Shown: positions 2,389 through 61,209, counted from the stretch's first letter. The stretch is DNA of 64,000 nucleotides from Poseidonia sp. (GCA_030827365.1 JAUREO010000001.1:22312-86311), one strand, 5' to 3'. The notes: generated by a model not told the origin, from the sequence alone. Numbers and translations: made by a program.

Positions 2389-2463
2389 TGCTGTACTGGA
2401 GAAGCGGTGATTTAACAGGTTATCCATAAACCGAAACAACCCCTTGAGAAAAGAAGGCAGGAG

Positions 2464-2534
2464 TGCGGATGGCGGGAGTCGAACCCGCGCAGCGAGCTTG
2501 GAAGGCTCGAGTGCTACCACTACACCACATCCGC
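2464..2534 (-). tRNA. tRNA-Gly (anticodon UCC)
   Basis: The reverse complement folds as GCGGATG-TG-GTGT-AGTGGTA-GCAC-T-CGAGC-CTTCCAA-GCTCG-CTGC-GCGGG-TTCGACT-CCCGC-CATCCGC-A. It has a 7-bp acceptor stem, 5-bp anticodon and T stems, and anticodon TCC. It is 71 nt long with no encoded CCA. Confidence 0.9.
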
Positions 2535-2634
2535 ATGTGGCAAACCTGCCGACACGCATCACCTCTTTGAAAAAATCGGTTGAACTTCTTGTAGCGGCAT
2601 CTTCGATTTGCTAAATTGATGTCATCGATGTGGC

Positions 2635-8160: not shown

Positions 8161-8272
8161 ACAACACACCCTACAATGTCTTGTGTGCAGACCTCCCTCA
8201 TCAAACATTTGCCTACAAATCTTTAGCAAAAGAACAGAAAGCATTCAAAAACCTCGTTCATTAGGTCGGCTT

Positions 8273-25200: not shown

Positions 25201-25614
25201 GAGCCCCATGGTTCGTCCATCATCAGGCGAGTAAATTTTTGATATTCCAGCTTGGTGAAGTGTTTTGATTTCTGGAGGGGTAATCGTCCCACCTCCACCT
25301 CCAAAGATGCGAATATGGCTGCACCCTGCTTCGTCGAGGAGTTCTCGGATGTAGGTGAAGTATTCCACGTGTCCGCCTTGATACGATGTCAGTGCTACAG
25401 CGTGGGCATCCTCTTGAATGGCGCAATCGACCACATCCTTTGCTGAACGGTCATGCCCAAGATGGATGACTTCCGCACCACTTGATTGAATGAGTCGTCG
25501 CATGACATTGATGGCTGCATCGTGACCATCGAACAATGAAGCAGCGGTTATGACACGCACAGGACCTGTGGATGTCGAAAAGGTGACATCATCACCCTGC
25601 TCATCATCGCTCAT
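22264..25614 (-). CDS. icmF: Fused isobutyryl-CoA mutase IcmF (B12-binding domain + MeaB-like GTPase + acyl-CoA mutase catalytic domain)
   Basis: The N-terminal B12 domain has the DGHD motif (SLFDGHDAAINVM). The central P-loop is GFTGTGGAGKSSL, with NKFE as the G4-like motif. The C-terminal ~600 aa is a mutase TIM-barrel domain. The first ATG downstream of the divergent promoter region is at 25614. Confidence 0.85.
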   Translation of the reverse strand: MSDDEQGDDVTFSTSTGPVRVITAASLFDGHDAAINVMRRLIQSSGAEVIHLGHDRSAKDVVDCAIQEDAHAVALTSYQGGHVEYFTYIRELLDEAGCSHIRIFGGGGGTITPPEIKTLHQAGISKIYSPDDGRTMGLMGMIHHLMGQASEVDLISEDRMASLDGPVNAMDTAKVGLLLTLSESMDDASFREVLERCRSSTNDVPVIGFTGTGGAGKSSLLDELMLRIQRDNPGKRVCLLCVDPTRKRTGGALLGDRIRMNSLSNNDLYMRSLASRGSGSEISQHLDRAIEVAKAVGFDLIFCETSGIGQGSDAITSVADHSLYVMTAEFGAHTQLEKIEMLDVADVVVLNKFEKRGSEDALRAIRKQVRRNRNLFDISDEELPVVATIASQFADAGVDRLWMKVADLVGFVASPPTDEFGGAKGVIPPERVNYLAEISATVREYHKHNEEMAQKLRLCQHLETAANHARQRGQGSVADDLQAQIDELISQLEDARKELQAFRDLAQQYASGEYTYHVRGKPFTVQTTTESLAHSNIPRVALPTFADDGELHTWMSRENAPGHFPYTAGVFPFKRTDELSARMFAGEGEAERTNRRFHYLSKGQDFARLSTAFDSVTLYGRDPALRPDIWGKVGNSGVSIASCDDAKRLYSGFDLCDPNTSVSMTINGPAPIILAFFLNAAIDQQVERYLAQQGTPLDIPTDAYRGDLPDGHNGFGLGTVGRRGDELVDAETYAELKAMALSTVRGTVQADILKEDQAQNTCIFSTPFALKLMGDVQQYYIDHNVRNHYSVSISGYHIAEAGANPITQLAFTLANGFTYVEYYKSRGMDINRFAPNLSFFFSNGLDPEYTVIGRVARRIWAVAMRELYGADERSQKLKYHIQTSGRSLHAQEIDFNDIRTTLQALLAIQDNANSLHTNAYDEAITTPTEGSVRRALAIQLIVNKESGWTKTENPMQGSFIVEELTDLVEQAVLEEFEAISRRGGVLGAMETMYQRGKIQDESMYYEHLKHDGTLPIIGVNTFQNPNAQAFDESNADEFDMELARSTPEEKQACLDRTNGLHNTHGDATDVALKRLQHVARSGGNVFEELMETVKVASLGQITTALFQVGGQYRRNM

Positions 25615-30751: not shown

Positions 30752-33406
30752 TCACTCGAATTTTCGGCGAGATGAGATGACCACACATGCACCAATAATT
30801 GATGCAAGTGTAGCGAACATACCGATTGAAGGAAGGCCAGAAATGGATTCCTCCTCTTCATCATCACCAGATTCTTCAACTTCATCGACATCACATGCAG
30901 TTCCGATACCATCATCGTCTGCATCGAGTTGATCGGCGTTTGCTACATTTGGACAGTTGTCCAAAACATCAGCAATTCCATCATTATCCGAATCTGTTTC
31001 CTCTTCCTCTTGAGTCACACAAAGGCCACTATTACATGAAGCGCCATAGGGGCAAGCATTGCCGCAAGCGCCACAATTTGTAATGTCTGTTGAAATGTCG
31101 ACACAATTGCCATTGCAATCGATTTGATCATAGGGACACAACAAAATTTCACATCCCTCTTGGTCAACAACTTCACCTGAGGCCGTTTCCGGGCATGAAT
31201 CGACAATATCATCCACACCATCCCCATCATCATCGGCATCGATTACATCGCACTCTCCATCGCCATCGAAATCAGTTGGCACATCGTTCGCATCTGTAGC
31301 ATTGGAACCGCAATCCCATTCTTCCCAATCGGAGTACGAATCATTGTCATCATCACTGTCGATAACATCGCATGTACCATCCATGTCGAAGTCAGTTGGT
31401 ACGCTGTTGTTATCCGAGGCATTGGTGTAACAGTAGTACTCATCTTGATCCGTCCATCCATCGCCATCGGTATCGGTATTCGTGTCGATGACCCCAAAGT
31501 TGACGCTTCGCGAGCCGACATAATACCAAGAATTATTGGATTCTAAGATAATCCAAGTTTCAATGTAGAAGTTGTAACTGCCTTCTTGCAGAGGACCAGA
31601 GGCTAATTGACTGAAATTGAAATACAATTCATCCCAATCGTTTTGAGCGGTATAACTTGAATTTCCATAGTCTATGATGGTTCCATTAGTTTCTGAGCTG
31701 TAGATTGAGATCCACCATTCATTAACGATGGTTGCATTCAACACATTGCAGTAATTTGCAATGTAAGCATACACTTCATCACCGACATAATACACATCAC
31801 CGTTGTACAATCCGCTAAGGGACAAGTATGCGTAGCTTGCATCATAACCACAACCCATGCCACTATTGTTTTGAGCGACCACAGAGAAGTTTGCGTACTC
31901 TTCGCCGAGGTTGTACGTCGTTCCTTGCCACACCATCGTAGCACTTGTTGAGAACGAGTAGTTCCCGACACCAAGATTGGTGAAATTGAGGGGGTGGTAA
32001 TCAGAAGTGTTGTATGCGGTCCAATTCCAAGAACCATAATCAATGTTTGTTGAGCCAGAGTTCAATTCCCAATTGATGATCATTTGGGCTCCGAGCACAT
32101 TACAATAGGTTGACATGTATGGGTATGGCATGTAAGTTCCAAGGATGTACTCGTCACCTTCGTAAAGTCCACTCATGTAGAACATAGTATAACTTGCATC
32201 GTATCCGCAACCCGAAGGTGCTGTGACATTGAAATGATACGTGTAGGAGTCGAGCAAAACTTGCTGAGTGCTGCTATCAATGTAGGACATTGAGGTCGAT
32301 ACGGTATAATTTCCGATACTCAAGTTACTCATGTAGAAGTAGTGATAATCGTACAGGTTGTACGCAGTCCAACTCCATGATCCATTGTCAAGCTCCAATA
32401 ACTCTGAATTATTGTTGATCCACTGATAGATTGTGTAATTGACAATCATGGTTTGATTGAGCATGTTACAGTAGGTGTACACGGTAGCATTGAGCGAATC
32501 ACCTTCGAAGAGGGGATAGTAATTGTTCCATGCTGAGATGTACGCATAACTCTCTTCATAACCGCAACCTGAGTTGTTACTTGAAGAAGATGAAACAGTG
32601 AATGAGTCATAATCGTAGTCGAGATATGTCCATCCTTGATTTGTGGTGTTCCAGGTGTACAAAGTAGCATACAGTGTGTACGAACCTGCGCTGATGTTGG
32701 TGTAGTTGATGTCGTAGTAATATGTTGAGTATGATGCATTCCATTGGAAAGACCCTGTGGTGAGATTCATGCTGTTGTTGTTGTCCATAATGTACCAGTC
32801 AACTCGCATGGTGTTTCCAAGAAGGGCACAATATGTGTCGATGTATGCCTCATAGGTGTCGCCAGCAGTGTATGATGTGTAGTAACTGTTGGGGTCGAGA
32901 TAGGCATAACTCGAATTATAACCACATCCTGAACTGCTGCTGTTTGATACGGTAAAGTTGTATGAATAGCCATCCAGCCAAGTGAACGTTTGCGAGTTAT
33001 CGTAGTAATACAATCCAAGATTCACAGTATATGTGCCGTAAACTAGATTTTGGAGGTAATGATAATGTGTTTGCGTTATTGAATACGCCGTCCAATTCCA
33101 AGCGCCTGATTGAACGTAGGTACCGTTAGGTGCAGTCACGTTGTATATGACATACATGGTCTGATTGAGCATATTACAATTTGAGTAGACCGATCCGTTG
33201 AATGAGTCCCCGACGTAGTACGGCCCGTTGTTGTACCAACCCGAAATATAAGCGTAGGATTCGTTGTATCCACATCCTGTTGAATTATTTCCTGAATTTG
33301 CTTCTGTTGTCGATTCTTCCAACATGATTGTTGTTGAATTCATCATACTGGGAGCCATTGAACCCAAAACAAAAACAAGAGTTATCACTAGTGTACGGCC
33401 GTTCAT
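30752..33406 (-). CDS. Secreted, C-terminally anchored Tyr/Asn-rich surface (glyco)protein: 5 x ~118-aa novel repeats + TSP3-like repeats + Cys-rich module
   Basis: The signal-like N-terminus is MNGRTLVITLVFVLGSMAPS. Five GCGY...YCN.L...W(N/S)WTAY repeats are dense in NxS/T sequons. They are followed by DTDGDGWTDQDE and DSDNDGIADVLDNCPNVANADQLDADDDGIGTACD, then CNGNC...CGACGNAC. The C-terminal TM is followed by RRKFE. Confidence 0.85.
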   Translation of the reverse strand: MNGRTLVITLVFVLGSMAPSMMNSTTIMLEESTTEANSGNNSTGCGYNESYAYISGWYNNGPYYVGDSFNGSVYSNCNMLNQTMYVIYNVTAPNGTYVQSGAWNWTAYSITQTHYHYLQNLVYGTYTVNLGLYYYDNSQTFTWLDGYSYNFTVSNSSSSGCGYNSSYAYLDPNSYYTSYTAGDTYEAYIDTYCALLGNTMRVDWYIMDNNNSMNLTTGSFQWNASYSTYYYDINYTNISAGSYTLYATLYTWNTTNQGWTYLDYDYDSFTVSSSSSNNSGCGYEESYAYISAWNNYYPLFEGDSLNATVYTYCNMLNQTMIVNYTIYQWINNNSELLELDNGSWSWTAYNLYDYHYFYMSNLSIGNYTVSTSMSYIDSSTQQVLLDSYTYHFNVTAPSGCGYDASYTMFYMSGLYEGDEYILGTYMPYPYMSTYCNVLGAQMIINWELNSGSTNIDYGSWNWTAYNTSDYHPLNFTNLGVGNYSFSTSATMVWQGTTYNLGEEYANFSVVAQNNSGMGCGYDASYAYLSLSGLYNGDVYYVGDEVYAYIANYCNVLNATIVNEWWISIYSSETNGTIIDYGNSSYTAQNDWDELYFNFSQLASGPLQEGSYNFYIETWIILESNNSWYYVGSRSVNFGVIDTNTDTDGDGWTDQDEYYCYTNASDNNSVPTDFDMDGTCDVIDSDDDNDSYSDWEEWDCGSNATDANDVPTDFDGDGECDVIDADDDGDGVDDIVDSCPETASGEVVDQEGCEILLCPYDQIDCNGNCVDISTDITNCGACGNACPYGASCNSGLCVTQEEEETDSDNDGIADVLDNCPNVANADQLDADDDGIGTACDVDEVEESGDDEEEESISGLPSIGMFATLASIIGACVVISSRRKFE
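31485..33277 (-). repeat. Five tandem in-frame ~118-aa coding repeats (GCGY repeat)
   Basis: Each unit begins GCGY(N/E/D)xSY and contains a second Cys in YCN(M/V)L(N/G). It ends with an aromatic-rich segment and F(T/N/S)V. Confidence 0.8.
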
Positions 33407-35246: not shown

Positions 35247-36635
35247 TCAATCCTTCTTCTCTTTTCGAGGGCGATGTCTTTTTTTCTTTCCGTCTTGCTC
35301 TTCTTCAAGCATGGCTCGAAGTTCTCTCGACGATTTATTGGATTTCTTCCCGGTTTGACCTGCGACATCGATGCGAATTTTTCGACCATCGATTTCAGTG
35401 TTCGTGATTTGGCCAACCAATTCATCTGCGTTGGTTTCGGATGTTGTTGAGACGAAAGCAAATCCTTTCGGTTTGTTGTCAGGACCAGTCACAATGTTGA
35501 TGTGTGTTATTTCGGCTTTGTCTTTAAACAATGAACGAATTTGCTCTTCAGTAATTGAAAATGGTAAATTCCCGACATAGAATTTAACCTCAGGTATTGA
35601 TTTTGGTTTGTCTTTCTTACTTTTGTCATCGGCTAAATTCACACCAAGAATCCGACCTTGCACCTTTTTGGTTTTCATGGCTTGAATGGCTGCTTGAGCC
35701 ATATCTTTGTGTTCATAAGTGACAAAACCGAATCCGCGGCTGTTGCCAGATTCGTCGGTCATGACGATGCAATCATCCATTTCACCATATTCACCAAAAA
35801 TTTCACGAAGCCCATTGGTATCGATGTCTCTTGGAATTCCTCCAACGAAAAGTCGGCAGTCTGGGTCTGCTTGTTGCTTTGCTCCACCACCGCCTGAAGA
35901 ACCGCCTTCGAAAGAAAAATATTCGATTTCTCGACCATCATTTCGAACATCGGCTGCAATTCGAGTTGCACGAGCAGAAGGACCGATGTTTCTAAATTTC
36001 TCAGTTGCTTCACTCCAGCGTTTTCCTTTCCTTGAAACTTCATCGATGTCTTCTCGACCAGTGCCCCAACCCACACCAAATTGGTCGGATACTGCACGGA
36101 AATCTTTGGTGTTGCAGACGGTGCAAGCAACATTCCAATCGTCATCAAGTTTAATCTTCATGTCACCGCCACATGCACCGCAAATGGTGCTGAGAACACC
36201 GAGCTCCGAAGAGGAGCGAAAGTCAATTCTCAACACAGGTTTGGTTTCAATGACCACACCGCGGCAAATATCACGGATATTGAGTGCATCTCGAGTTTGG
36301 TGGAGATAACGATCTGTAATATTGGTGACGTGGAATTGAGCAATTAAGTTCTCTGCATCGATTGAACCTCGCTTGCCTTCGATGACAAGTAACGTGGCTT
36401 CGCCATTTTTTTCATTGAGGCGACTAATTTCACAAAGGACTTTATCGCCAATTTCCGGTACAGGAGGTTGTTTATTTGCAAGGATACTAATGACCCCGTC
36501 GAGGTGTTGAACTTCCCCAAAAATGCTTGCCCTCAGCACACCCTCGTGGGATATAACTCCGTGACCAGCCTCAAATTCACCGTCATTGCACAACTTCGTT
36601 CCGGGGGTGACGATGCTCGCCGTCATAATTCTCAT
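35247..36635 (-). CDS. Exosome cap subunit Csl4 fused to two RRM (RNP-type) RNA-binding domains and a Lys-rich tail
   Basis: The Csl4 part has VTPGTKL..GHGV, an S1-like core EIGDKVLCEISR...FHVTNI..IRDICRGVVIE, and the zinc ribbon CGACGG...CTVCN. A GGSSGGGG linker follows. RRM1 has LFVGGI and RGFGFVTY; RRM2 has FYVGNL and KGFAFVST. The start is ambiguous (GTG 36683, ATG 36635 or 36626). Confidence 0.8.
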   Translation of the reverse strand: MRIMTASIVTPGTKLCNDGEFEAGHGVISHEGVLRASIFGEVQHLDGVISILANKQPPVPEIGDKVLCEISRLNEKNGEATLLVIEGKRGSIDAENLIAQFHVTNITDRYLHQTRDALNIRDICRGVVIETKPVLRIDFRSSSELGVLSTICGACGGDMKIKLDDDWNVACTVCNTKDFRAVSDQFGVGWGTGREDIDEVSRKGKRWSEATEKFRNIGPSARATRIAADVRNDGREIEYFSFEGGSSGGGGAKQQADPDCRLFVGGIPRDIDTNGLREIFGEYGEMDDCIVMTDESGNSRGFGFVTYEHKDMAQAAIQAMKTKKVQGRILGVNLADDKSKKDKPKSIPEVKFYVGNLPFSITEEQIRSLFKDKAEITHINIVTGPDNKPKGFAFVSTTSETNADELVGQITNTEIDGRKIRIDVAGQTGKKSNKSSRELRAMLEEEQDGKKKRHRPRKEKKD

Positions 36636-47779: not shown

Positions 47780-48826
47780 ATGGGCTACCATTTCATGTCC
47801 TTTGGTGCAGCGGAATGGGCCATCTTAGGGATGTGGTTCATCGCCATCCTCGCTCCTTTAGGCTTCGCAATCCGACACCAGACTTCTCTTGCTCTCTCAC
47901 TGACCCTAAGCGTGTTGCTTGGCTCAATTGTTCAACTTCTTTGGTCGATTCTTTACAACTCAGGTCTGTTATCGACTTGGCTTTGGCATGATTTTGTCTT
48001 AGTTCCTTCTCGGACAACTGAACCAATGTGGTGGCACACCATTTTCACTTCGGGTTTTTTGCACAGTAACGATGTCATGCACGTGCTCGGAAATACAATC
48101 ATTCTTGCATTGGTTGGCATACCGCTGGAACAACGGTTAGGCATGAGAAGATATGCATTGGTGTATACTGCAGGTCTCTTTTTTGGTTCAACAGCATGGA
48201 TGTTGATGAATTTAGATTCGAGCAGGCCTGCATTAGGGGCATCAGGTGCTGCTTTTGGTCTGCTGGGCGCATATCTCGCAGGATGGCCCAAGGACGAGAT
48301 ACCTTTTCCGTTTATTCTCATTCGAAAATGGCCAATTACTTTGATTGCATTGGTGTATTTTGGTTTGGAAATACTTCGAGCATACTCCACCATTGGCCTT
48401 CATCAAACCAGCGATGTAGCACACATGGCTCACTTAGGTGGTTTTCTCGGTGCTTACATTTGTTTACCGCTCATTGCAAAAGGTGGGCCTGTACCACTCG
48501 GTATTGAAGATGGTGGGCCTTCGCTCATCAATTCAATACAAAGCAAAAACATGGCCATACGATCTAAAATGGTGGACCTATCAACTCTTGAATCCCCATG
48601 GGAAGTTGATGGAACCATTCCAAAACATCTTCGTGAGCTATTGTCAAAATTAAAGCAAGAAGGTGATGAAGTTGAAACGAGGTTGGCGTGGATGGAGCAA
48701 ATATCTTACCTTGCATTTTGCCCAATTTGTGAACAACAAATTGTCATGACAGAACACAGTGATGGTCCAAGGTTGACGTGCATGGAGAATGCATCTCATC
48801 TCGACTGGCCAAAGGCAATCGATTGA
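47780..48826 (+). CDS. Rhomboid-family intramembrane serine protease with C-terminal cytoplasmic zinc-ribbon-like tail
   Basis: Motifs WWHTIFTSGFLHSNDVMHVLGN, the catalytic GASGAAFG and AHLGGFLG. The tail is CPIC-x16-C-x5-H. Confidence 0.85.
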   Translation: MGYHFMSFGAAEWAILGMWFIAILAPLGFAIRHQTSLALSLTLSVLLGSIVQLLWSILYNSGLLSTWLWHDFVLVPSRTTEPMWWHTIFTSGFLHSNDVMHVLGNTIILALVGIPLEQRLGMRRYALVYTAGLFFGSTAWMLMNLDSSRPALGASGAAFGLLGAYLAGWPKDEIPFPFILIRKWPITLIALVYFGLEILRAYSTIGLHQTSDVAHMAHLGGFLGAYICLPLIAKGGPVPLGIEDGGPSLINSIQSKNMAIRSKMVDLSTLESPWEVDGTIPKHLRELLSKLKQEGDEVETRLAWMEQISYLAFCPICEQQIVMTEHSDGPRLTCMENASHLDWPKAID

Positions 48827-48876
48827 TTTTTCAGAAATTTCCATTCAAAACAAAGATAGAATAAAGGAGGTAAACC

Positions 48877-48900
48877 ATGACATACAGGCAGGAGGGGTGA
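48877..48900 (+). promoter_or_regulatory. Candidate 7-codon leader ORF (MTYRQEG*) with a strong AAGGAGGT Shine-Dalgarno-like site, ending 1 nt before the subtilase ATG
   Basis: Read directly: aaAGGAGGtaaaccATGacatacaggcaGGAGGggTGAaATG. The second GGAGG, inside the leader ORF, sits 6-10 nt upstream of the main ATG. Confidence 0.3.
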
Positions 48901-48901
48901 A

Positions 48902-51900
48902 ATGCAACGTCAACGAAATTCTCGATTGAGCATTCTCATTCTCATGATATTCATCATGGTCTTTTCAACAACACTTTCTCCAATTGTTGCACATCCAATC
49001 TCAAATGTTGTGGTAAAAAACAGCGATGAACCGATTCTCATCGAGGGTTTGCCCCCACTAGTGTGCGGTGAAGAACTGTGTCGATTCAATGATCGTTTGA
49101 TTGAACGAAATGGCATGCCTGCATCCGAAGATGAACTTTGGTGGTTGTCGTACGGTCCAGATTTAGATTGGAATGGGATGGACGATAGATTACAACGTGT
49201 TCTTGCGGGAGCGGAGTCGATATCTCCTACCGCCATTATTGGCCCTGATGGCAGAAAAACCGTTGCCATCGTTGTCGATTATGCATGGCATCCAACAAAT
49301 AAAGAGCATGAAGAACTGCAAGCGATTCTTATCGCCCATGGTTGGGTCGGCGAAGAAGGTGGTGCGTGGTACCAAGCGCTCGATTCATTGGATGCTATCG
49401 TTGTTGACAAAGTTCCAGTGTCAGCTCTCATGGATATTTATTCATCCGAAGGGGTTGTCGTCATTGAAATGCAGAACGTCATGGTACCATCCAATGACAT
49501 CGCTACAAGGGCACTCCGAATGCGTCCATCAGATGTGTACACCGCAACTGCATATGAGCGAGGATATGATGGACAAGGCGTGGTCATTGCTGTCCTTGAT
49601 ACTGGGGTTGATAATGAACACCGTTCATTGAATGATTTTGACGATAAAAATGACGCACCAGATGAAGACCCCACCTCTTACAATGATCAAAAGTGGGTCG
49701 CAGGCTACGATGCCACCTCGGCTGCAGCAAACCAGGATGGTTCACAAGACCCAGATGACGGTCAAGGTCATGGGACCCACGTGGCTGGAAGTGCCCTCGG
49801 GACTGGGGGTAGTGACCGAACCCATATGGGTACAGCGCCCGGAGCATTCCTTGTGGACATCAAAGTCCTCACCGATTCAGGCGGCACAAATTCACAGGCA
49901 TCGTTGAACGGAATCCAATGGATGATTAACAATAGAAATACCGATTGGGGTAACAACGCCTCAAGTCGAGGCATTGATGTAGCTTCGATGTCGTTTGGTT
50001 CGGTATCATCCCCACTCAATCCCGGCGACGAAGGAGATAATGGTTCAGGTGCTGAGGCACGACTTGTGAATAATGCGACTTCGGCTGGAATTGTTTGCGT
50101 AGTTGCAATGGGTAACGATGGTTCTCGTCGAGTACCTTCTCCAGCAAGTGCAGATGGTGCAATATCAGTCGCTGCCGCAAATGATCGAAACAATGTCAAT
50201 CGAACCAACGACGTTATCGCATCCTATTCAAACTCGGGCCCGAGGATTTCAGATGATGACGATGATGATTGGGACGAACTTAAGCCAGATGTAACATCGT
50301 TCGGTACGGGAATTGTTTCCGCATCGGCGGCAACAGGGCCATCTTTGCCTGGCCAATTCAAAACCCTTGCCGATAATGACTACGAGTCCTTGGACGGTAC
50401 CAGTATGGCCACCCCGCTCGTATCGGGGGTTGTTGCTATTATGTTACAAGCAGACGACTCGTTGACGCCCGAACAAGTCAAGGACATCCTCCGAAACTCA
50501 TCAGAAATTAAAGGAAGTGCCAGTGAACCATCCATCTCGAATCGGTGGAACGCAAATTGGGGTTTTGGTCTTGTTGATGCCTCTTGTGCCCTTGACCAGG
50601 TCTTGAAACGAGTTTGTACATCTCTTGACGATTCAGGCGTGGTCATTGACCCTCCACCAGGCGGTGGTGTTGGTGACCATGTTGACCTCGATGAACCAGA
50701 GAACCAAACCTATCACCTTGCTGGCAAATATCTTCGAGTTGCAGGAACCACAGATATTCCAAACGATGTGAATTATGTCCAGGTTCAAGTTCTTCTTGAG
50801 CAAGTCAATGATGATGGAGATAAGACCGAACTTATGCCATGGACTGCAGCGACTGGTTCTGTTGATTCATGGTATCTTGATGTCTTGGTCCAAGACGATT
50901 GGGCAGACCCAGAAGCCGATTACAATGTCATTTACGCAAGAGCCGTTACCGATGAGGGCGATGCGTCTGCAATCGCATACAAAATTGTCCAATTTGGGAA
51001 AATGGATATTACCTTTTCATCACCTCTCGCAGATGCGATATTGTCTGGTATCGTTGAGGTTTCAGGAACTGTAGAAGGAACCGACCATAATCGAATCGAA
51101 TACAAAGTGGATGGTGGGGATTGGGTCGTTGGAACTACGCTTTCCCCAATGAAAGAGGGACAACAATCATGGTCATTCACGTGGAATTCACAAGAGGTCG
51201 AAGATGGAATTCACAAATTAAGTGTCAGAATGGTCAATGATTCCGAAATAAAGACCGATATCGAACGAAGGTCATTTACAATCGATAATTTCCCAGCCGC
51301 TCCAGATTTTGAGATTTTTGGAGTACCTGAAATTCACGAGCAAGGCTTACCCGTGTACGAAGCAATCGCAGGCACCTTACTCGAAGTCAAGGTCTCAATT
51401 CGTAATATTGGCGATGATGATGGTAAAGAAGTGTATGTTCTTCTCGATGCCCCCGGAACCGTCTCGACATCCTATCCTTCGGATTATGAAGTTGCACTAC
51501 TTGAAGAAGGCTCAACAGTGTCAATCACACTTCATTGGTGGGCTACTGAAGCGGGAGAGCATTCAGTCAGTATCGAAGTTGACCCGAACAACCAATTCAC
51601 TGAACCAAATGAAGAGAACAATGTCTACAGTTTTAATTTTAAAATCAATGAACGACCTACTCAACCAGTCTTGCGTTTTCAATCTGGTTCAGTAAGTACA
51701 ACACCAGTCATACCGACTCCAAACCAACCGTTCAAAATCAATGTGCGAGTGGATAATTATGGGCAAAATGATGCAACAAACTTGCAACTTGCTCTCGATA
51801 GATTCGTTGATGGTATAGGCTGGAATCGTTTGGATTCGAAGGAAATCATCGTCATACCAGGGTCAATTGTTTTCCCAGGTTTTATTGAAGTTGAATTTAC

Positions 51901-53743
51901 CGAGCTTATCCAAGAGGCGGGGCCGCAACAATACCGTGCGACACTTAGTGGCAACGGAGTCGAGGTTGAACATAGCCAATATCGCTTCAACATTTCAGTG
52001 TCAGAATACACAGTCAGTGCACTCGTTCGACTCAATCTTGATGCAAATGAAGTTCCAATCGACCTTGTGAGTGTTGAAGATAGATCACTGCTTTTTACGG
52101 TTCGAAAAGGTGAACTCCATGTAAGAGTTTATGGAAAAACCAATCAATTGATCTCCGACATTTTGCTTGAAGGAAACTGGGATGGCGAACTTGCCACACT
52201 CGTTCGCGAAGATGACTTAGTTCATGTTGCTTGGACCCGAAAAACCGAAAGTGTTGATGGGTATACGCTGACCAACATTGGTATGACTTCAATTTCAAGT
52301 GAAGGAAAAATAACACCAAAACACTATCATTTGCAACCTTTGAAATTATCTGAGGGAAGTTATTGGGGTCTTGCCTTGGATGAATATGACGAACGAGTCG
52401 TTCTCGCCGGTTACCACAGAGACATATCTACAGGTGGCTCGTGGCAAGATATTACCTCCATATTTGTACTCGTGAGCGACACACCCGACCGAGGAAATTC
52501 TTGGGGGAATGAAGTGGTCGTTCTTGCTGATGTCGACATTCGAAAGAGTGAGGCACAACCACTCGCTATCGCACTTGGTGAAGAATACTTACACATTCTC
52601 TACCAACAACGCAGAGATGACATCACGGGCATCGAACGTGTTGGACTCATGTACACACATGGCGAACCAACACAGGCCTCTTGGTCGTTCAAATCTGCTG
52701 TTGACGATGAAAGTTACAATGCTGTCATCGATGTTCATGTGGAGGATAAGGAAGATATTCTCATCGCCGCTTGGATGAAAAATACAGGTCGATACACAAA
52801 AATTGCGACTGCAGTAACCGACACCAGTTGGTCCATTGACGACCCAACATATGTTTCTGCACCAGGCTCGCAATTTTTGACCATTGGAAAGCACCGCGAT
52901 GGATATTATGTCCTGTATGATGAAATCAATGTGTTTGGTCCTGTCACTCGTTTTGGTCAATTTGCTGATGACGATGGACAGGCAGTGAATGGGGTATCAA
53001 ACATCATTGCAAATGGCTATATTCGGGGCTATGGTGTTGAGGAAAATAACGACGGTGTCATGCTTTTGATTTCTACATCAGGCTCGTATGAATTCAAAGA
53101 CATCATCTCTGGCGAAGATTACGAACAAGGTGAAAAGCTATCAGGTTTGGAACTGCTGCTTGAACCGCTTCCAGGGTCATTTGAAACAAAACTGATTGTA
53201 GCATCAACGAGCGTAGTCTTGTTGGCCCTGTTTCTCATCTTCGTTGTCGTTTCTCTCAAGAAAAGTCGTCGAGAGGTAGAATTGGAAATTGCAAAAGCGG
53301 CAGAAGACCAAGACAATATTGAACTTATGATACAACCAGAAGAAGACATTGGTCCTTTGCTCGCTATTGATGCGGAAGAAGAAGACCTTGTTGTGTCAAC
53401 ATCTGCACCACTGGTCCAAGAAGATGAAGAGAAGCACTCACTTTCGGAGGAGTTAGAACATAAAATCGAACAAGGTGAAGGTAGTGCAAGAATGGAGAGA
53501 AGAATGAAACGCATGAAAGAACGAGAACTTGCTGAGATGTTTGCTAATATGCCTACCCCTAAACTGCCTCTACCAGGTGATGTACCTCCACCTGCGTTTG
53601 TTCCTTTACCACAGGCCTCAATGCCCCTTCCTGAATTGTCAAAACAAATGACGTGTTCAAAATGTTCTGCGACGATTAAGGTCAAAGATATCATGCGTGC
53701 ATCAATCAAATGTCCAATTTGTTCGGCCAATATTGAATCTTGA
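48902..53743 (+). CDS. Giant S8 subtilisin-like serine protease with Ig-like/CARDB-like domains, a beta-propeller-like region, a single TM and a ~160-aa cytoplasmic tail ending in a zinc ribbon
   Basis: Catalytic triad motifs are VIAVLDTGVD, GQGHGTHVAGSA and DGTSMATPLVSG. The signal is LSILILMIFIMVFSTTLSPIVA. CARDB-like signatures include IRNIGDDDGKEVYV...EPNEENNVYSF. The TM is LIVASTSVVLLALFLIFVVVSL. The tail has acidic and Pro-rich parts and CSKC-x15-CPIC. Confidence 0.9.
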   Translation: MQRQRNSRLSILILMIFIMVFSTTLSPIVAHPISNVVVKNSDEPILIEGLPPLVCGEELCRFNDRLIERNGMPASEDELWWLSYGPDLDWNGMDDRLQRVLAGAESISPTAIIGPDGRKTVAIVVDYAWHPTNKEHEELQAILIAHGWVGEEGGAWYQALDSLDAIVVDKVPVSALMDIYSSEGVVVIEMQNVMVPSNDIATRALRMRPSDVYTATAYERGYDGQGVVIAVLDTGVDNEHRSLNDFDDKNDAPDEDPTSYNDQKWVAGYDATSAAANQDGSQDPDDGQGHGTHVAGSALGTGGSDRTHMGTAPGAFLVDIKVLTDSGGTNSQASLNGIQWMINNRNTDWGNNASSRGIDVASMSFGSVSSPLNPGDEGDNGSGAEARLVNNATSAGIVCVVAMGNDGSRRVPSPASADGAISVAAANDRNNVNRTNDVIASYSNSGPRISDDDDDDWDELKPDVTSFGTGIVSASAATGPSLPGQFKTLADNDYESLDGTSMATPLVSGVVAIMLQADDSLTPEQVKDILRNSSEIKGSASEPSISNRWNANWGFGLVDASCALDQVLKRVCTSLDDSGVVIDPPPGGGVGDHVDLDEPENQTYHLAGKYLRVAGTTDIPNDVNYVQVQVLLEQVNDDGDKTELMPWTAATGSVDSWYLDVLVQDDWADPEADYNVIYARAVTDEGDASAIAYKIVQFGKMDITFSSPLADAILSGIVEVSGTVEGTDHNRIEYKVDGGDWVVGTTLSPMKEGQQSWSFTWNSQEVEDGIHKLSVRMVNDSEIKTDIERRSFTIDNFPAAPDFEIFGVPEIHEQGLPVYEAIAGTLLEVKVSIRNIGDDDGKEVYVLLDAPGTVSTSYPSDYEVALLEEGSTVSITLHWWATEAGEHSVSIEVDPNNQFTEPNEENNVYSFNFKINERPTQPVLRFQSGSVSTTPVIPTPNQPFKINVRVDNYGQNDATNLQLALDRFVDGIGWNRLDSKEIIVIPGSIVFPGFIEVEFTELIQEAGPQQYRATLSGNGVEVEHSQYRFNISVSEYTVSALVRLNLDANEVPIDLVSVEDRSLLFTVRKGELHVRVYGKTNQLISDILLEGNWDGELATLVREDDLVHVAWTRKTESVDGYTLTNIGMTSISSEGKITPKHYHLQPLKLSEGSYWGLALDEYDERVVLAGYHRDISTGGSWQDITSIFVLVSDTPDRGNSWGNEVVVLADVDIRKSEAQPLAIALGEEYLHILYQQRRDDITGIERVGLMYTHGEPTQASWSFKSAVDDESYNAVIDVHVEDKEDILIAAWMKNTGRYTKIATAVTDTSWSIDDPTYVSAPGSQFLTIGKHRDGYYVLYDEINVFGPVTRFGQFADDDGQAVNGVSNIIANGYIRGYGVEENNDGVMLLISTSGSYEFKDIISGEDYEQGEKLSGLELLLEPLPGSFETKLIVASTSVVLLALFLIFVVVSLKKSRREVELEIAKAAEDQDNIELMIQPEEDIGPLLAIDAEEEDLVVSTSAPLVQEDEEKHSLSEELEHKIEQGEGSARMERRMKRMKERELAEMFANMPTPKLPLPGDVPPPAFVPLPQASMPLPELSKQMTCSKCSATIKVKDIMRASIKCPICSANIES

Positions 53744-53752
53744 AGTGATCAT

Positions 53753-55573
53753 ATGTGTAGCATCTTTGCATATATTGGCTATCGTAAAGCCCAACCAATC
53801 TTGCTTGACGGCATACGAAGAATGGAATACAGAGGTTATGATTCTGCAGGTATCGCAGTCAAAAACCCTGAAATTCAAGTTATCAAATCCGTTGGAAATG
53901 TTTCTCAACTTCAAGAAAAAATTACACAGATCTTTGATGGCCAAACTGGAATTGCACATACTCGATGGGCTACACACGGTGGAGTTACCGATGAAAATGC
54001 ACATCCTCATTTTTCATTCGACCGAAAAGTTGTTTTGGTACACAATGGAATTATTGAAAATTATAAAGCATTAGCAAGGCAACTTCAATCATTAAACATC
54101 GAACTCAAATCGCAAACAGATACTGAAATTATTGCCCATCTCATCGCCCTCGAATTAAAATCAGGGAAAAACCCAACTGCATCGGTTCTCAATACCGTAA
54201 AGAAACTACGCGGAACATGGGGGATTTGCGTCATGTTTGCAGACCATCAAGAACTCGTATGTGCCCGATTTGGTTCCCCGTTGCTCGTTGGTAAAAATGA
54301 AAATGAAATGTTTGTCTCAAGTGACCCCCACGCACTGCATCCCTACACCGACCGCGTTATTTTCCTCGAAGAGGGCCATATTGCCACGCTTACTCAAAAC
54401 AATGTTGAATTATCCTCTCCTACAAAAAACTCAGTCAAAGCAGAAATTGTAACTTTAGAACAAGATTGGGGCGAAGCAGAATTAGGAGAGTTTGAACATT
54501 TCATGCTCAAGGAGATTTACGAGCAACCCGATGCACTCCGTCATTGTGTTTCGGGGCGAATGAGTCTGAATCAAGGCATTGGACGGTTAGGGGGAATGAG
54601 GTTAGAGCCTGCTGTGCTACAACAGACACCGCATGTACGATTACTTGGATGTGGAACAGCGTTCCATGCTGCAGAAATCGGAGCTGCATTGGTTGAGCGT
54701 TTAGCAAGAATTCCTGCAGTTGCTACTATTTCCAGTGAATTCAAAACCAACGACCCAGTCATTAATCCGAAAGCAATACATCTTGCGATATCTCAATCTG
54801 GAGAAACTGCCGATACAATTGCTGCTATTCAAGAAATTCATCTTAAAGGTGCGAAAGCGTACGGTGTGGTCAATGTTGTAGGTTCCACCATTTCACGTCT
54901 GTGTGGGCAAGGTGTGTACATTCACTCTGGCCCAGAGCAAGCCGTAGCCTCCACAAAGGCATTCACAAATATGATTGCAGCTTTGACATTGTTTGCGACT
55001 CAAATTGGTCGTTCAAGGCACATTTCAAAAGACCAAGGGGTTGATATCCTCAAAGAATTACAACAAATTCCGCACAAAATGGAAGGATATCTTGAGTCTC
55101 AAGGCGACATTATGAAAGCAGTTGAGTTACTTAAGGATGCGAAATGTGTGTTGTTTTTGGGACGCGGTATCTCTGCACCAGTCGCCAAAGAAGGAGCACT
55201 CAAACTCATGGAAGTTGCCTACATCCCTTGTTTGGCATATCCTGCAGGTGAAATTAAACATGGACCAATTGCTCTGCTTGAGGAAGGTAGTCCTGTCGTC
55301 GTCGTAGCACCAAACGACTCACTGCAAGTCAAAGCCCTATCAGCAATTCACGAATGTAGGGCGAGGGGTGCAAAAATAATTTTGATTCATGAAGAAGGTG
55401 ATTCAATTTCATCTGAAGGTGACATTTCTATTGCCATACCAAAATGCCATGAGCTGCTATCACCTCTGTTGACCGTCATTCCATTACAATTGATTGCTTA
55501 CCACACTGCTGTTGCGCGAGGTTGCAATGTGGACCGACCACGCAATCTAGCAAAATCAGTCACGGTCGAGTGA
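53753..55573 (+). CDS. glmS: Glutamine--fructose-6-phosphate aminotransferase (isomerizing)
   Basis: The N-terminus MCSIFAYIG provides the Ntn Cys. RGYDSAG and HTRWATHG also match. There are two SIS domains, and the C-terminus is PRNLAKSVTVE. Confidence 0.95.
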   Translation: MCSIFAYIGYRKAQPILLDGIRRMEYRGYDSAGIAVKNPEIQVIKSVGNVSQLQEKITQIFDGQTGIAHTRWATHGGVTDENAHPHFSFDRKVVLVHNGIIENYKALARQLQSLNIELKSQTDTEIIAHLIALELKSGKNPTASVLNTVKKLRGTWGICVMFADHQELVCARFGSPLLVGKNENEMFVSSDPHALHPYTDRVIFLEEGHIATLTQNNVELSSPTKNSVKAEIVTLEQDWGEAELGEFEHFMLKEIYEQPDALRHCVSGRMSLNQGIGRLGGMRLEPAVLQQTPHVRLLGCGTAFHAAEIGAALVERLARIPAVATISSEFKTNDPVINPKAIHLAISQSGETADTIAAIQEIHLKGAKAYGVVNVVGSTISRLCGQGVYIHSGPEQAVASTKAFTNMIAALTLFATQIGRSRHISKDQGVDILKELQQIPHKMEGYLESQGDIMKAVELLKDAKCVLFLGRGISAPVAKEGALKLMEVAYIPCLAYPAGEIKHGPIALLEEGSPVVVVAPNDSLQVKALSAIHECRARGAKIILIHEEGDSISSEGDISIAIPKCHELLSPLLTVIPLQLIAYHTAVARGCNVDRPRNLAKSVTVE

Positions 55574-57528: not shown

Positions 57529-60500
57529 TCAAAAGTCTAGGTCATCTAACAAATCGTGGATAGATGATAACGCAAGTTGAGGTGCAGTATCAAAGGCTTG
57601 TGGTTGCATAGGCGGTGCAGGGGTCGAATTTGCGTCCAACCACTGTTGGCCATAGTAATTCCATTGGTCCATCGTCCAACCCTGAGGAAGACCATTAGCC
57701 GGTAATGGAGGGCCGCTCGAAACAGGTGCAGTCGCCATCGGATTGGGTGGAATCGAGGTTTGTACAACGTCGAGAGCTGGTAAAGGTTTAGGCTGTGGTT
57801 GAGGAGGTGAAGCCTGCAAAGAAGGTAAAGCAGGTAAGGCTGGTAAGGCAGGCAAGGCGGGTAGAGGTTGTTGTTGGAAGACCGGTAGTTCGGCTTGGCC
57901 TCCAATCCCGAAGACAGCATCATCGAATTTTGTTTCGTACACATCATCAGAGGCTCTTGGTTTGGTGATGAACATGAATCCGATGAGAAGGACCACGATG
58001 ATGACGATGGTCATGAGCGTATACGTCATTGTCGGTCCAATGGCTGACTCAATTGATTCAAAGATGCCATCTGGGGGTTGTTCTGTGACTTTGATGGTCA
58101 TTGATGTTGTTTGGAATTCACCGTCGTCATCGATCACCGTGAGTACAATATCCCATGTACCAGGTGGAAGGTTTGTGAGTTCAATAGATTCAGTTGTAAA
58201 ATCAACATCACCTGCGTTTTTCCCATCGAGATTTCCATCGAGGTAGCCAACATCCCATGAGTATTGAAGATTTAATTTGTCAGTTTCTGTCTCTCTTGTT
58301 CCTGCAGCAGAAAGTATGATGGTATCGCCTTCCATTAAGTCTGTGAGGAGTGATTCTGAGCCTATTACAGGAACAGGTGGCAGATTGAGTACACTGACAT
58401 TCATCGAAATCGATGCCGAAGCCCCGTCGTTGTCGATCACAGTAGCCGTCACTTTTCGAACACCTTTTGTTCCCCATGATGCGTTGAGATTTTCTCCCTT
58501 GACTTCACAGTCGTCATCCATTACACCGTTGTTATCGAGGTCAACACTCGAGTCGAGGTCCCAGCACACGACAAGACTTTCCAAATCGGACGGCGTATCA
58601 TCGATATCAACGGACAAATATAGTGGGTCATCTTCGAAGAGTGGAACATCTCCAAAGAATCCGGATATGGTGGGTGCTACATTGTTGACCATCACAGTAC
58701 CATAGCGAAGTTCAGAAGATGCTCCATCATCATCCACGGCTCGTACTGAAATGACATGTTTACCAGATATATTCCATGAAATAAGTTGCATCGATTCTGC
58801 TCCAGTGGTTGTCAATGTCCAGTTGGCGTTTTTGTTTGATGGGTGCCATTCAATGAGAAGTGTTGGCTCATCGCTGATTGAATCATCAGCAAGGACATTG
58901 AGGAATCCGACCTCATCTTCGTTGACAACCCATACACCATCACCGTTGACCAATGCTGGCTCTCCGGCGAGAATGAGTTGGGGTTGGCCAATCGTTGGAG
59001 CTATGTTGAGAACAGTAATGTTGTACTCCACTTCAGTCGTGGCCCCATCATCATCAACGCCAACCGCCTTGACACTCATTGGCCCTTCTTCGAGTGGTGT
59101 AAATGTGCATAATCGTTGGGTCATTCCTTCGTCACAATCAAGTCCTGGCCAAGATATTACCACATCTTGCCCTTCTGGAGAAATGGTGTCGTTATCTTCA
59201 ACTCCGACGGCTTGAATTGTGATTTTTGACTCAACCTCGACCGATGTTGGTCCTGTGAGGTCAAATTCTGGTGGTCGATTGAGGACATTGATGGTGTGAT
59301 TGAGTTCCGACGTATCCAATTCATTGTCGGTGACAATGAGGTGAACATTCCATTGCCCATCGTCTGACCAGTTGAATTCAGTGATGCAATTTTCAGCATA
59401 GATTCGTGTGATGAGACTTGGCTTGTATTCGATTTCAAACATACATTCGATGTTTCCACCGTCTTCGTCAAAACTTGCCGATGCATCAAGGATGATGTTT
59501 TGCCATGTGAACATCCCTTCGGTCGAGGTCATGTTGCTCGTGGGTAATCGTCCAAAGAACAGATTAACATTCCCTTGATTGTTTGTTCGGTCGGCATCCT
59601 CGGTTACACTTTGTGTAGGGTCGACGACGTAGGAGAATGTTGATGTCCCGACGGCTTGGTCGACTTGGACAGTGTATTCAAGTTCGACTCGGTAGGTCGA
59701 ATATGGGCCTATGGCGGGTACTGTGGTGCTTGAGCTGGTCGAAAGCACATTTCCATCGAGCAGGAATTGCACTGTTGTTGCGGGGGAAGTAGCAATGCCT
59801 CTGTTTTCAATGGGTAAGGAAAAGGTAAGGATATCACCCGGAATTGAATTGAATCCGACTGCTGAATTCAACGTAGTTGTTTCTCCATCCCTCGTTCTTT
59901 CAACAATCGTAGCAGATGCTTGTGCAATGAGGTCAACTCCAACGATGGACAGGTCCATGACAACACTCGTCACTCCGATAACCCTTGCAACTGGGTCCCA
60001 AACGATGAGACCATTGCTCGAGTAGTCATCACTTGCAGGTGTATCATCGGTAAATTCAGAAGTATCAAGGTCGGTAATCGAAATATTTCCTACGGAATTA
60101 GTCGTAGGATTTCGAATGTTTTTATCAATTTCATATCGAACTTGTAGGTTCGTGTTTGCTACGGCATTTCCACCGTTGAGGTATTGAGCAGAGAAACTTG
60201 TTTCAATTTCCGGAAGGACTCTTGGATAGGTCATTTGTACATTGATGACTTTGTTTCGAGTGCCTGGGTCAGAGGTTGCCGAAACCCCAGTTGAATCAGC
60301 AGGACTGTATGTCTTGAGGAACCAATCGATAGTGAATCCTGCAGTGTTTGACACTCTGTTCCACGCTGGGCCACGCACATTTGGACAGTACCAATTGAAT
60401 CCTGTGTTAACTCCAGTTCCGTTCCATTCCATAATTTTGAATGAATTTTGACAGCCTTGGTAGGTGGGTGACTTTCCTGCTTCGGATGGGGCTTGATTTT

Positions 60501-61209
60501 TTGTAATCTGCCAAGAGTAATTTTCCGTAACGGTGTTGTCAAAGCCCGATGGGTCAAAATAATTCGAACTTCCAGAGACATCAGTTTCGGCCTCGATAAG
60601 AGAATACCATTGGTTTCCGTTTTGTAAAGGAAAATCGTGAGATTCTTTCGGAGGGGAATAGGTCGTATTGAATTCAAGTGTTGCAATATCTTGTTTCAGC
60701 CAGTTTGCTGGAAATCCGAAAATGGAGGGAATAAAATCGACATCGAGTTCAAACACAGTGACAATAGTGGCTAAATCTCGAACCCTGACATAATCTGCAC
60801 CGTCATAGGCGATGTTGAGTGTGCCTTGATTCCCATCGAGTGTGGCACCATTTGTTCCGGAGGTGAAATCTCCAGTGATCAAAATCTCGTAAACGAGGGT
60901 TTGAGTGCCGTCCACATCGACAAATCCAATGGCGTTGACCTCACGAGTCGTGTCTCCGTCGAGGGTATTGATGGATGCGGATACGCCGGATTGTTGAACA
61001 AGACTCGAAACATCAAAATCAGTATCATAGACCCAAGTGTCACCAACTCTGTAATTTGGAACATCAACCACAGAATTCGTGCTTCGCCCGGCTTTGAACG
61101 AAGCGATGTCGAGGGTCAACCTTTGCTCATGCTCAGCAAACAGTGCTAAACTCGGCAAAATAAAAATGAACAGGAGTATGAGCGAAACTGCTCTTCGGTT
61201 CATATTCAT
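57529..61209 (-). CDS. Large surface protein with multiple PKD/Ig-like domains, a single C-terminal TM and a Pro-rich cytoplasmic tail
   Basis: The signal is AVSLILLFIFILPSLALFA. Repeated PKD-type endings occur (VDDDGATTEVEYNITVLNIAPT, VDDDGASSELRYGTVMVNNVAPT, IDNDGASASISMNVSVLNLPP, IDDDGEFQTTSMTIKVTE). The TM is MTYTLMTIVIIVVLLIGFMFI. The tail contains LPALPALPALPALPSL. Confidence 0.85.
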   Translation of the reverse strand: MNMNRRAVSLILLFIFILPSLALFAEHEQRLTLDIASFKAGRSTNSVVDVPNYRVGDTWVYDTDFDVSSLVQQSGVSASINTLDGDTTREVNAIGFVDVDGTQTLVYEILITGDFTSGTNGATLDGNQGTLNIAYDGADYVRVRDLATIVTVFELDVDFIPSIFGFPANWLKQDIATLEFNTTYSPPKESHDFPLQNGNQWYSLIEAETDVSGSSNYFDPSGFDNTVTENYSWQITKNQAPSEAGKSPTYQGCQNSFKIMEWNGTGVNTGFNWYCPNVRGPAWNRVSNTAGFTIDWFLKTYSPADSTGVSATSDPGTRNKVINVQMTYPRVLPEIETSFSAQYLNGGNAVANTNLQVRYEIDKNIRNPTTNSVGNISITDLDTSEFTDDTPASDDYSSNGLIVWDPVARVIGVTSVVMDLSIVGVDLIAQASATIVERTRDGETTTLNSAVGFNSIPGDILTFSLPIENRGIATSPATTVQFLLDGNVLSTSSSTTVPAIGPYSTYRVELEYTVQVDQAVGTSTFSYVVDPTQSVTEDADRTNNQGNVNLFFGRLPTSNMTSTEGMFTWQNIILDASASFDEDGGNIECMFEIEYKPSLITRIYAENCITEFNWSDDGQWNVHLIVTDNELDTSELNHTINVLNRPPEFDLTGPTSVEVESKITIQAVGVEDNDTISPEGQDVVISWPGLDCDEGMTQRLCTFTPLEEGPMSVKAVGVDDDGATTEVEYNITVLNIAPTIGQPQLILAGEPALVNGDGVWVVNEDEVGFLNVLADDSISDEPTLLIEWHPSNKNANWTLTTTGAESMQLISWNISGKHVISVRAVDDDGASSELRYGTVMVNNVAPTISGFFGDVPLFEDDPLYLSVDIDDTPSDLESLVVCWDLDSSVDLDNNGVMDDDCEVKGENLNASWGTKGVRKVTATVIDNDGASASISMNVSVLNLPPVPVIGSESLLTDLMEGDTIILSAAGTRETETDKLNLQYSWDVGYLDGNLDGKNAGDVDFTTESIELTNLPPGTWDIVLTVIDDDGEFQTTSMTIKVTEQPPDGIFESIESAIGPTMTYTLMTIVIIVVLLIGFMFITKPRASDDVYETKFDDAVFGIGGQAELPVFQQQPLPALPALPALPALPSLQASPPQPQPKPLPALDVVQTSIPPNPMATAPVSSGPPLPANGLPQGWTMDQWNYYGQQWLDANSTPAPPMQPQAFDTAPQLALSSIHDLLDDLDF
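57824..57868 (-). repeat. Five tandem 9-bp units (GGTAARGCN-like) encoding the (LPA)n tract
   Basis: Read directly on the plus strand: ggtaaagca ggtaaggct ggtaaggca ggcaaggcg ggtagaggt. Confidence 0.8.

Follow-up and report, generated by a model that had tools for sequence, protein, structure and literature searches.

A 64,000-nucleotide (nt) stretch of DNA from Poseidonia sp. (GCA_030827365.1, JAUREO010000001.1:22312-86311; hereafter the window), an archaeon of the Poseidoniales (Marine Group II, MGII), encodes a rhomboid intramembrane protease directly ahead of a giant membrane-anchored subtilase of the S8 family. Our favored explanation, held tentatively and a little short of an even proposition, is that the rhomboid targets the one transmembrane (TM) anchor at the C-terminus of its neighbor, the gene pair being a conserved unit that is probably co-expressed. 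The rhomboid would cleave the S8 anchor, either shedding the ectodomain or clearing the anchor, and the unit would be an archaeal counterpart of the 'dedicated' pairs formed by rhombosortases and their targets. The nearest public locus is from a Candidatus Poseidoniales metagenome-assembled genome, with 95% protein identity in the rhomboid, and the sequencing runs containing DNA of this stretch were chiefly metagenomes labelled estuary, aquatic or freshwater, with marine ones also represented.

The rhomboid scored 82.8 bits against the Pfam profile PF01694 (Rhomboid, MEROPS S54), above the cutoff of 22.6, and its HVLGN, GASGAAFG and AHLGG motifs are invariant among 75 relatives. An AlphaFold2 (AF2) model built on a 75-sequence alignment (predicted local distance difference test score, pLDDT, 87.9) has seven TM helices, including an extra one before the six-helix core. 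The top 36 Foldseek matches to this model were GlpG or iRhom structures, the best being Escherichia coli GlpG (E 1.9e-4, target-normalized TM-score 0.67). By its motifs and modeled fold, the enzyme appears catalytically competent. Because TM6 of the core ends in the cytoplasm, the C-terminal domain is expected to be cytoplasmic; it was modeled with helices at residues 249-263, 282-294 and 298-311 and strands at 320-326 and 329-334 (pLDDT ~90). A longer open reading frame (ORF) from 47681 was rejected, as it overlaps the divergent ABC gene upstream and orthologues align from the methionine at 47780; Ccm genes (CcmC) lie farther upstream. The rhomboid features are as follows.

47780-48826, plus strand: rhomboid intramembrane serine protease gene, 348 amino acids (aa), 1+6 TM, N-out/C-in.
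48080-48094, plus strand: HxxxN motif of TM2, HVLGN (H101, N105), invariant.
48236-48259, plus strand: catalytic Ser motif GASGAAFG (S155) in TM4, invariant.
48428-48442, plus strand: catalytic His motif AHLGG (H218) in TM6, invariant.
48497-48823, plus strand: cytoplasmic C-terminal domain of three helices, including DEVETRLAWMEQ (48665-48700), then a zinc ribbon.
48719-48799, plus strand: predicted zinc-ribbon ligands CPIC-x16-C-x5-H (C314, C317, C334, H340), invariant in Poseidoniales.

The neighboring protease matched Peptidase_S8 (PF00082, 159.5 bits), Big_7 and CARDB in Pfam, and carries the triad motifs VLDTGVD, GHGTH and GTSMATP in that order, with the oxyanion Asn in AMGND; on these motifs it also looks catalytically competent. 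The preliminary description of this DNA had reported the rhomboid and S8 protease genes on one strand, the GASGAAFG and AHLGG motifs of the rhomboid, the Cys motifs of both proteins and a single S8 anchor, and all of these were borne out, with the anchor located at 53189-53257 rather than at about 53194-53259. Apart from the signal peptide, KLIVASTSVVLLALFLIFVVVSL is the sole hydrophobic segment of the protein; it is followed by KKSRRE and then by the rest of a 161-aa tail. The signal peptide and the basic residues after the helix therefore indicate type I topology (N-out, C-in), which, with the C-in tail of the rhomboid, fits a rhomboid-substrate relation.

48902-53743, plus strand: gene for the giant type-I membrane-anchored S8 subtilase, 1613 aa.
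48902-48994, plus strand: N-terminal signal peptide MQRQRNSRLSILILMIFIMVFSTTLSPIVAH, from sequence and hydropathy.
49571-50518, plus strand: S8 catalytic domain (residues 224-539), from Pfam and the D/H/S triad motifs.
51008-51631, plus strand: Ig-like Big_7 (residues 703-775) and CARDB (801-910) domains, from Pfam.
53153-53179, plus strand: juxtamembrane motif LLLEPLPGS on the outside face, column conservation 80-90% in 89 orthologues.
53189-53257, plus strand: single TM anchor KLIVASTSVVLLALFLIFVVVSL, conserved in position and not in sequence.
53258-53740, plus strand: conserved 161-aa cytoplasmic tail with KKSRRE, GPLLAID (53351-53371), an acidic stretch, a basic helix, a Pro-rich linker and a zinc ribbon.
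53474-53527, plus strand: basic helix GEGSARMERRMKRMKERE of the tail, conserved, AF2 pLDDT ~85.
53654-53722, plus strand: predicted zinc ribbon CSKC-x15-CPIC (C4), in every intact orthologue.

Poseidoniales orthologues keep the juxtamembrane core LLExLPG as well as GPLLAID and G(E)GNARLERRMKRKQQRE in the tail; within the C-terminal region, conservation is lowest in the TM helix. We also considered a canonical recognition motif for rhomboids (small P1, hydrophobic P4 and P2') near LPGS or the TM start, and rejected it as a poor and unconserved fit. In the AF2 model of the C-terminal region, calculated from only 8 sequences, the TM helix, the basic helix (pLDDT ~85) and the ribbon (83-89) are formed and the remainder is disordered. 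A protein search with the tail by itself returned nothing but pieces of members of this S8 family, indicating that the tail is not a mobile module used elsewhere; a 208-aa match to it (P0124) was rejected as a separate protein, since it belongs to the fragmented S8 ORF of locus L246. In that locus (L246:3820-8627, a single JGI contig) the S8 gene is split into several short called genes with the neighbors intact, either a pseudogene or a long-read assembly error. Apparent ribbon-less S8 tails in three other loci (L041, L051, L072) were discarded as products of N-runs, frameshifts or contig ends.

The genes are separated by a spacer that had been put at 76 nt and is in fact 75 nt long.

48827-48901, plus strand: intergenic spacer, 75 nt, with two GGAGG Shine-Dalgarno-like sites, the second 6 nt ahead of the S8 ATG.

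The length of this spacer is constrained across orthologues (median 75 nt, 5-95% range 22-136), and at four loci the genes overlap by 20 nt. The Shine-Dalgarno-like site before the S8 start and the short, constrained, same-strand spacer were both counted in favor of a conserved, probably co-expressed unit. The spacer also contains an A/T-rich stretch, ATAGAATAAA, that could be a TATA box. In the segment 48866-48901, the first GGAGG precedes a 7-codon mini-ORF, with ATG at 48877 and TGA at 48898, which ends 1 nt ahead of the S8 ATG at 48902.

Rhomboids of the same clade from other Thermoplasmatota were found beside a different anchored hydrolase. We gathered 13 genome or assembly loci and 80 metagenome loci from non-Poseidoniales Thermoplasmatota, 84 of which had room upstream of the rhomboid. 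In 64 of the 84, a protein with a signal peptide, an LTD domain (often with CARDB) and two PLD domains (HKD; PLDc_2) ends at or overlaps the rhomboid start, usually by 10 nt, an arrangement indicative of translational coupling. Another 14 have a contig-cut PLD copy or a mere anchor-coding remnant at that position, and 6 have neither a PLD gene nor a remnant upstream. The PLD partners, which resemble NucT/DrmC-type PLD nucleases, share a conserved C-terminus, [DE]YKN-TIYIxxIFTMTFALIA-RDWRKRxW, with no zinc ribbon and a basic tail of only 6-9 residues. A convergent gene for a signal-peptide peptidase (SPP, A22B) lies immediately downstream in nearly all of these loci, and the combination of PLD signal and rhomboid looks like an apparently undescribed dedicated system of C-terminal signal and rhomboid, with two intramembrane proteases adjoining.

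PLD-rhomboid loci: L159-L163, L239, L241-L245 and L247-L326.
Example, L244: PLD gene at 2348-6010, rhomboid at 6001-6972, SPP at 6978-7907.

One rhomboid clade is therefore found, in two lineages, with two different giant CARDB-bearing exo-hydrolases, each carrying a type-I C-terminal anchor. This coupling is independent of the Poseidoniales data and supports an enzyme-target relation more strongly than any other comparison made here. In six loci that lack an intact PLD gene (L265, L267, L268, L270, L283, L292), a stop-to-stop frame of 30-75 codons persists; it specifies the anchor signal alone (...IFTMTFALIARDWRKRxW) and runs into the start of the rhomboid gene. In L240, L263 and L292, the translated frames ahead of the rhomboid look like those of a putative tRNA gene.

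Within Poseidoniales, 143 distinct loci spanning both families of the order were gathered, with identities to the window proteins ranging from 95% to 38% for the rhomboid and down to ~32% for S8. The S8 gene lies downstream of the rhomboid on the same strand in all 138 loci with enough contig to judge; a locus that at first seemed to lack S8 (L154) proved to be a false negative. The expectation that the adjacency would be conserved in relatives was thus upheld, but its use as evidence of linkage was not. Other pairs in the block are equally stable, namely ABC-rhomboid (138/138), CcmC-ABC (131/131) and KaiC-Maf (83/83), and even the weakest link, between S8 and GlmS, is kept in 92 of 104 loci. 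Since every pair of the block is about equally conserved, the rhomboid-S8 adjacency is background synteny and no proof of a functional link, and we rejected it as decisive evidence. In the window, glmS (53753-55573, plus strand) begins 9 nt past the S8 stop (intervening positions 53744-53752), and in several Thalassarchaeaceae maf is found directly 3' of S8.

This parity in conservation is the first of several observations that count against a dedicated pair. Of the ~44 window ORFs, 5 (~11%) encode large proteins with a signal peptide and one C-terminal TM, so that a gene would adjoin such an ORF by chance in about 20% of cases, and a second giant S8 in the same window does not adjoin a rhomboid. 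The small-residue start of the S8 helix, A-S-T-S, which had been proposed as the kind of context that rhomboids cleave, is not kept, orthologues reading RLLGIIAL, ILILSVTS, KAILIGTV and so on; the helix as a whole is poorly conserved and has no canonical rhomboid recognition motif. The gene order is reversed relative to the PLD pairs, with no overlap, and a run search made as a check on co-transcription returned no RNA run containing the stretch.

These points could be read as inherited synteny and nothing more, with the rhomboid a housekeeping or general membrane protease, engaged in quality control or non-specific shedding, and S8 one of several anchored scavenging exoproteases. Such an account, which we regard as a real possibility although not a probable one, agrees with the 88-100% conservation of all block gene pairs, with the presence of five anchored giants in 64 kb, and with the TM of the second S8, ALLGIGSLALLMGLLV, which looks at least as rhomboid-like as that of the S8 next to the rhomboid. 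Extracellular S8 peptidases occur in all MGII genomes, 1-4 in each, in a survey that made no link to rhomboids (PMC6864105), and quality control is a known task of bacterial GlpG-type rhomboids (PMC9263693). However, translational coupling between rhomboids of this clade and an anchored hydrolase in another lineage is difficult to account for without a functional link. The rhomboid-S8 link also outlasts rearrangements that removed flanking genes, surviving the loss of the upstream Ccm genes in three loci (L093, L094, L097) and of downstream glmS/kaiC in 12 loci.

The preliminary description had further drawn attention to the tails of the two proteins, which it considered almost matching and possibly the basis of their co-assembly. 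Both tails are predicted to be cytoplasmic, conserved and folded as zinc ribbons: the AF2 models place a beta-hairpin at residues 320-334 of the rhomboid and four short strands in the S8 tail (pLDDT 83-89), and the ligands of both ribbons are kept in all Poseidoniales orthologues examined. The resemblance between them did not hold up. Alignment of the two ribbon alignments with hhalign gave a probability of 34-63% over 25-30 columns, a merely generic likeness, and homology of the two ribbons was rejected. Nor is the shared tetrapeptide CPIC meaningful: the x of CPxC varies freely among orthologues of both families, and CPxC forms the first knuckle of the rhomboid ribbon and the second of the S8 ribbon, so that the sharing is best regarded as coincidental. 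Curated families gave only sub-threshold matches to the S8 ribbon (best DUF7560, 21.3 bits against a cutoff of 27; Zn_ribbon_LysW likewise), the rhomboid tail matched only zf_UBZ in Pfam at E<=10 (E 0.087, below threshold), and a sequence search of the PDB with both tails returned nothing above threshold. In sequence, the rhomboid and S8 ribbons are alike only as generic zinc ribbons. The two-knuckle CxxC...CxxC-type pattern itself occurs in 5 of the ~44 window ORFs; neither it nor the co-occurrence of anchored proteins is rare as a bare pattern, and it is conservation that makes these features real.

The distribution of the rhomboid ribbon bears on the same question. Poseidoniales rhomboids keep the tail motif DExETRxAWMEH, and the broader form ETRxAWhE...CPxC is common to this rhomboid and distant archaeal ones. 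An exhaustive profile search revealed many archaeal rhomboids with an E[VI]RxAWLExF...CPxC-x8-12-CxxCGY tail, and in other Thermoplasmatota the ribbon is of the C4 type, CPxC-x8-12-CxxC. The helix-plus-ribbon tail is, by this sequence distribution, an ancient feature of a large archaeal rhomboid clade. Assembly of the two proteins through their cytoplasmic tails, with the matching ribbons as the recognition device, would be in keeping with two ribbons that are cytoplasmic, invariant across the order and predicted to fold, and with the shift of the rhomboid ribbon from C4 to CPxC-x16-C-x5-H exactly in the lineage with an S8 partner. That shift is, however, a single lineage event. Moreover, the ribbon is older than the pairing and is present where the PLD partner ends in a short basic tail without a ribbon; ribbon-to-ribbon pairing is therefore not the organizing principle, and we consider co-assembly of this kind improbable. 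Instead of pairing with the S8 ribbon, the helix-plus-ribbon domain of the rhomboid would serve generally in regulation or recruitment, and the S8 tail, with its basic helix and ribbon, would add lineage-specific control or mark the stub left after cleavage.

The length and conservation of the S8 tail, its ARLERRMKRKQQRE-type basic helix and the weak likeness of its ribbon to small archaeal zinc-ribbon proteins could also suggest a receptor-like protein, whose tail would serve in signalling or bind nucleic acid once regulated intramembrane proteolysis had released or activated it. Rhomboids cleave substrates of type I orientation near the outer leaflet, and the tail stays bound to the membrane. 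This established behavior is at odds with release of the tail, no DNA-binding family was matched, and the ectodomain is that of an ordinary degradative S8; we give the receptor-like interpretation very little credence. Returning to cleavage of the S8 anchor by its neighbor, a more ambitious version would extend it to the whole ribbon-tailed archaeal clade, as dedicated rhombosortase-like processors of anchored exo-hydrolases: PLD/LTD proteins bearing the YKN...RDWRKRxW signal in many Thermoplasmatota, and in Poseidoniales the giant S8, whose acquired ribbon tail would be read by the cytoplasmic domain of the rhomboid, regulating shedding. In this full form the proposal is doubtful.

The closest known parallel is the bacterial rhombosortase/GlyGly-CTERM system (Haft and Varghese 2011), exemplified by VesB of Vibrio cholerae and ExeM of Shewanella, in which S8 proteases, trypsin-like proteases and LTD nucleases are among the targets and, where there is a single target, its gene adjoins that of the enzyme (PMC3237569, PMC6219818, PMC6085458). 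In both cases a rhomboid-family protease is paired genomically with a signal-peptide exo-hydrolase held on a single C-terminal TM helix. Unlike the bacterial enzymes, the window rhomboid is archaeal, with one more TM at its N-terminus and with a helix-plus-ribbon domain in the cytoplasm; S8 has no Gly-Gly motif, and carries a conserved 161-aa tail instead of the few basic residues of GlyGly-CTERM targets. No NCBIfam match to the rhombosortase model TIGR03902 was obtained for the window rhomboid even at E<=1, a Thermoplasmata relative scored 42.3 bits against it, below the cutoff of 84, and none of the NCBIfam CTERM models matched S8. Membership of the rhombosortase family fails because there is no model match, no GlyGly-CTERM and a long structured S8 tail. 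GlyGly-CTERM membership of S8 was rejected for lack of both motif and model match, and a PGF-CTERM/archaeosortase signal was likewise rejected: although LPGS stands ahead of the TM, S8 continues into a long tail and matched no CTERM model. The PLD partners of the other lineages do have a tripartite C-terminal end like that of GlyGly-CTERM proteins, but with a different motif.

Eukaryotic sheddases, such as Drosophila Rhomboid-1 acting on Spitz, apicomplexan ROM4/5 on adhesins and RHBDL2 on thrombomodulin, also act on type-I proteins and release ectodomains. Their enzymes and substrates are unrelated to those described here and are not genomically linked, and their helix-destabilizing TM motifs are unconserved in S8. 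For thrombomodulin, recognition is directed by the cytoplasmic tail. Among archaea, RhoII of Haloferax volcanii differs from the window rhomboid in domain organization, its zinc-finger domain being N-terminal where the window enzyme has a C-terminal ribbon, and it has no reported candidate substrate in an adjacent gene. Like the window enzyme it is archaeal, and it is implicated in cell-surface biology with its natural substrates unproven (PMC9263693). The same 2022 review lists archaeal rhomboid substrates as putative only, with no natural one validated (PMC9263693). A precedent for the cytoplasmic domain is offered by YqgP (GluP) of Bacillus subtilis, cited in that review, which uses an extra cytoplasmic domain as a sensor or recruiter for substrate-specific, regulated cleavage of MgtE (PMC9263693); the YqgP domain is N-terminal and not a zinc ribbon, and the substrate is a polytopic, non-adjacent transporter. 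Literature searches found no work joining 'rhomboid' with 'Marine Group II', or 'rhomboid protease' with 'zinc ribbon'.

Other genes of the window were also annotated, all of the following on the minus strand.

2635-8244, minus strand: second giant subtilase of 1869 aa, bearing a signal peptide and scoring 147 bits against Peptidase_S8.
19427-22174, 30752-33406 and 57529-61209, minus strand: three further large proteins, each with a signal peptide and one C-terminal TM anchor.
22264-25614, minus strand: 1116-aa fusion of B12-binding, MeaB GTPase and methylmalonyl-CoA-mutase domains, with an IcmF-like architecture.
35247-36635, minus strand: 462-aa protein with an exosome Rrp4/Csl4-type N-terminal domain, CxxC...CxxC and two RRM_1 domains (E 4e-36).

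The C-terminal TM of the second subtilase, ALLGIGSLALLMGLLV, is Gly/Ser-rich and richer in small residues than the anchor of the rhomboid-adjacent S8, and is followed by a 39-aa basic tail without a zinc ribbon. Among the three other anchored proteins, one has a CD36-family match (E 6e-16), unusual in an archaeon, another carries thrombospondin type-3 and STIG1-like Cys-rich repeats, and the last combines CARDB/PKD domains with a 144-aa proline-rich cytoplasmic tail. RRM domains, as in the 462-aa protein, are rare in archaea.

The rhomboid-S8 pair is a directly testable archaeal candidate for an enzyme and its target, and the PLD-rhomboid pairs of Thermoplasmatota provide a second, independent one; archaeal rhomboids may have their first natural substrate in S8. 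With its cytoplasmic ribbon domain, the enzyme would also add to the known ways in which a rhomboid can be regulated or guided to its substrates. Few planktonic archaea are as abundant as Poseidoniales, for which a life on proteins has been proposed, and whether their main giant subtilase is retained on the cell or shed bears on the processing of dissolved and particulate protein in the ocean.

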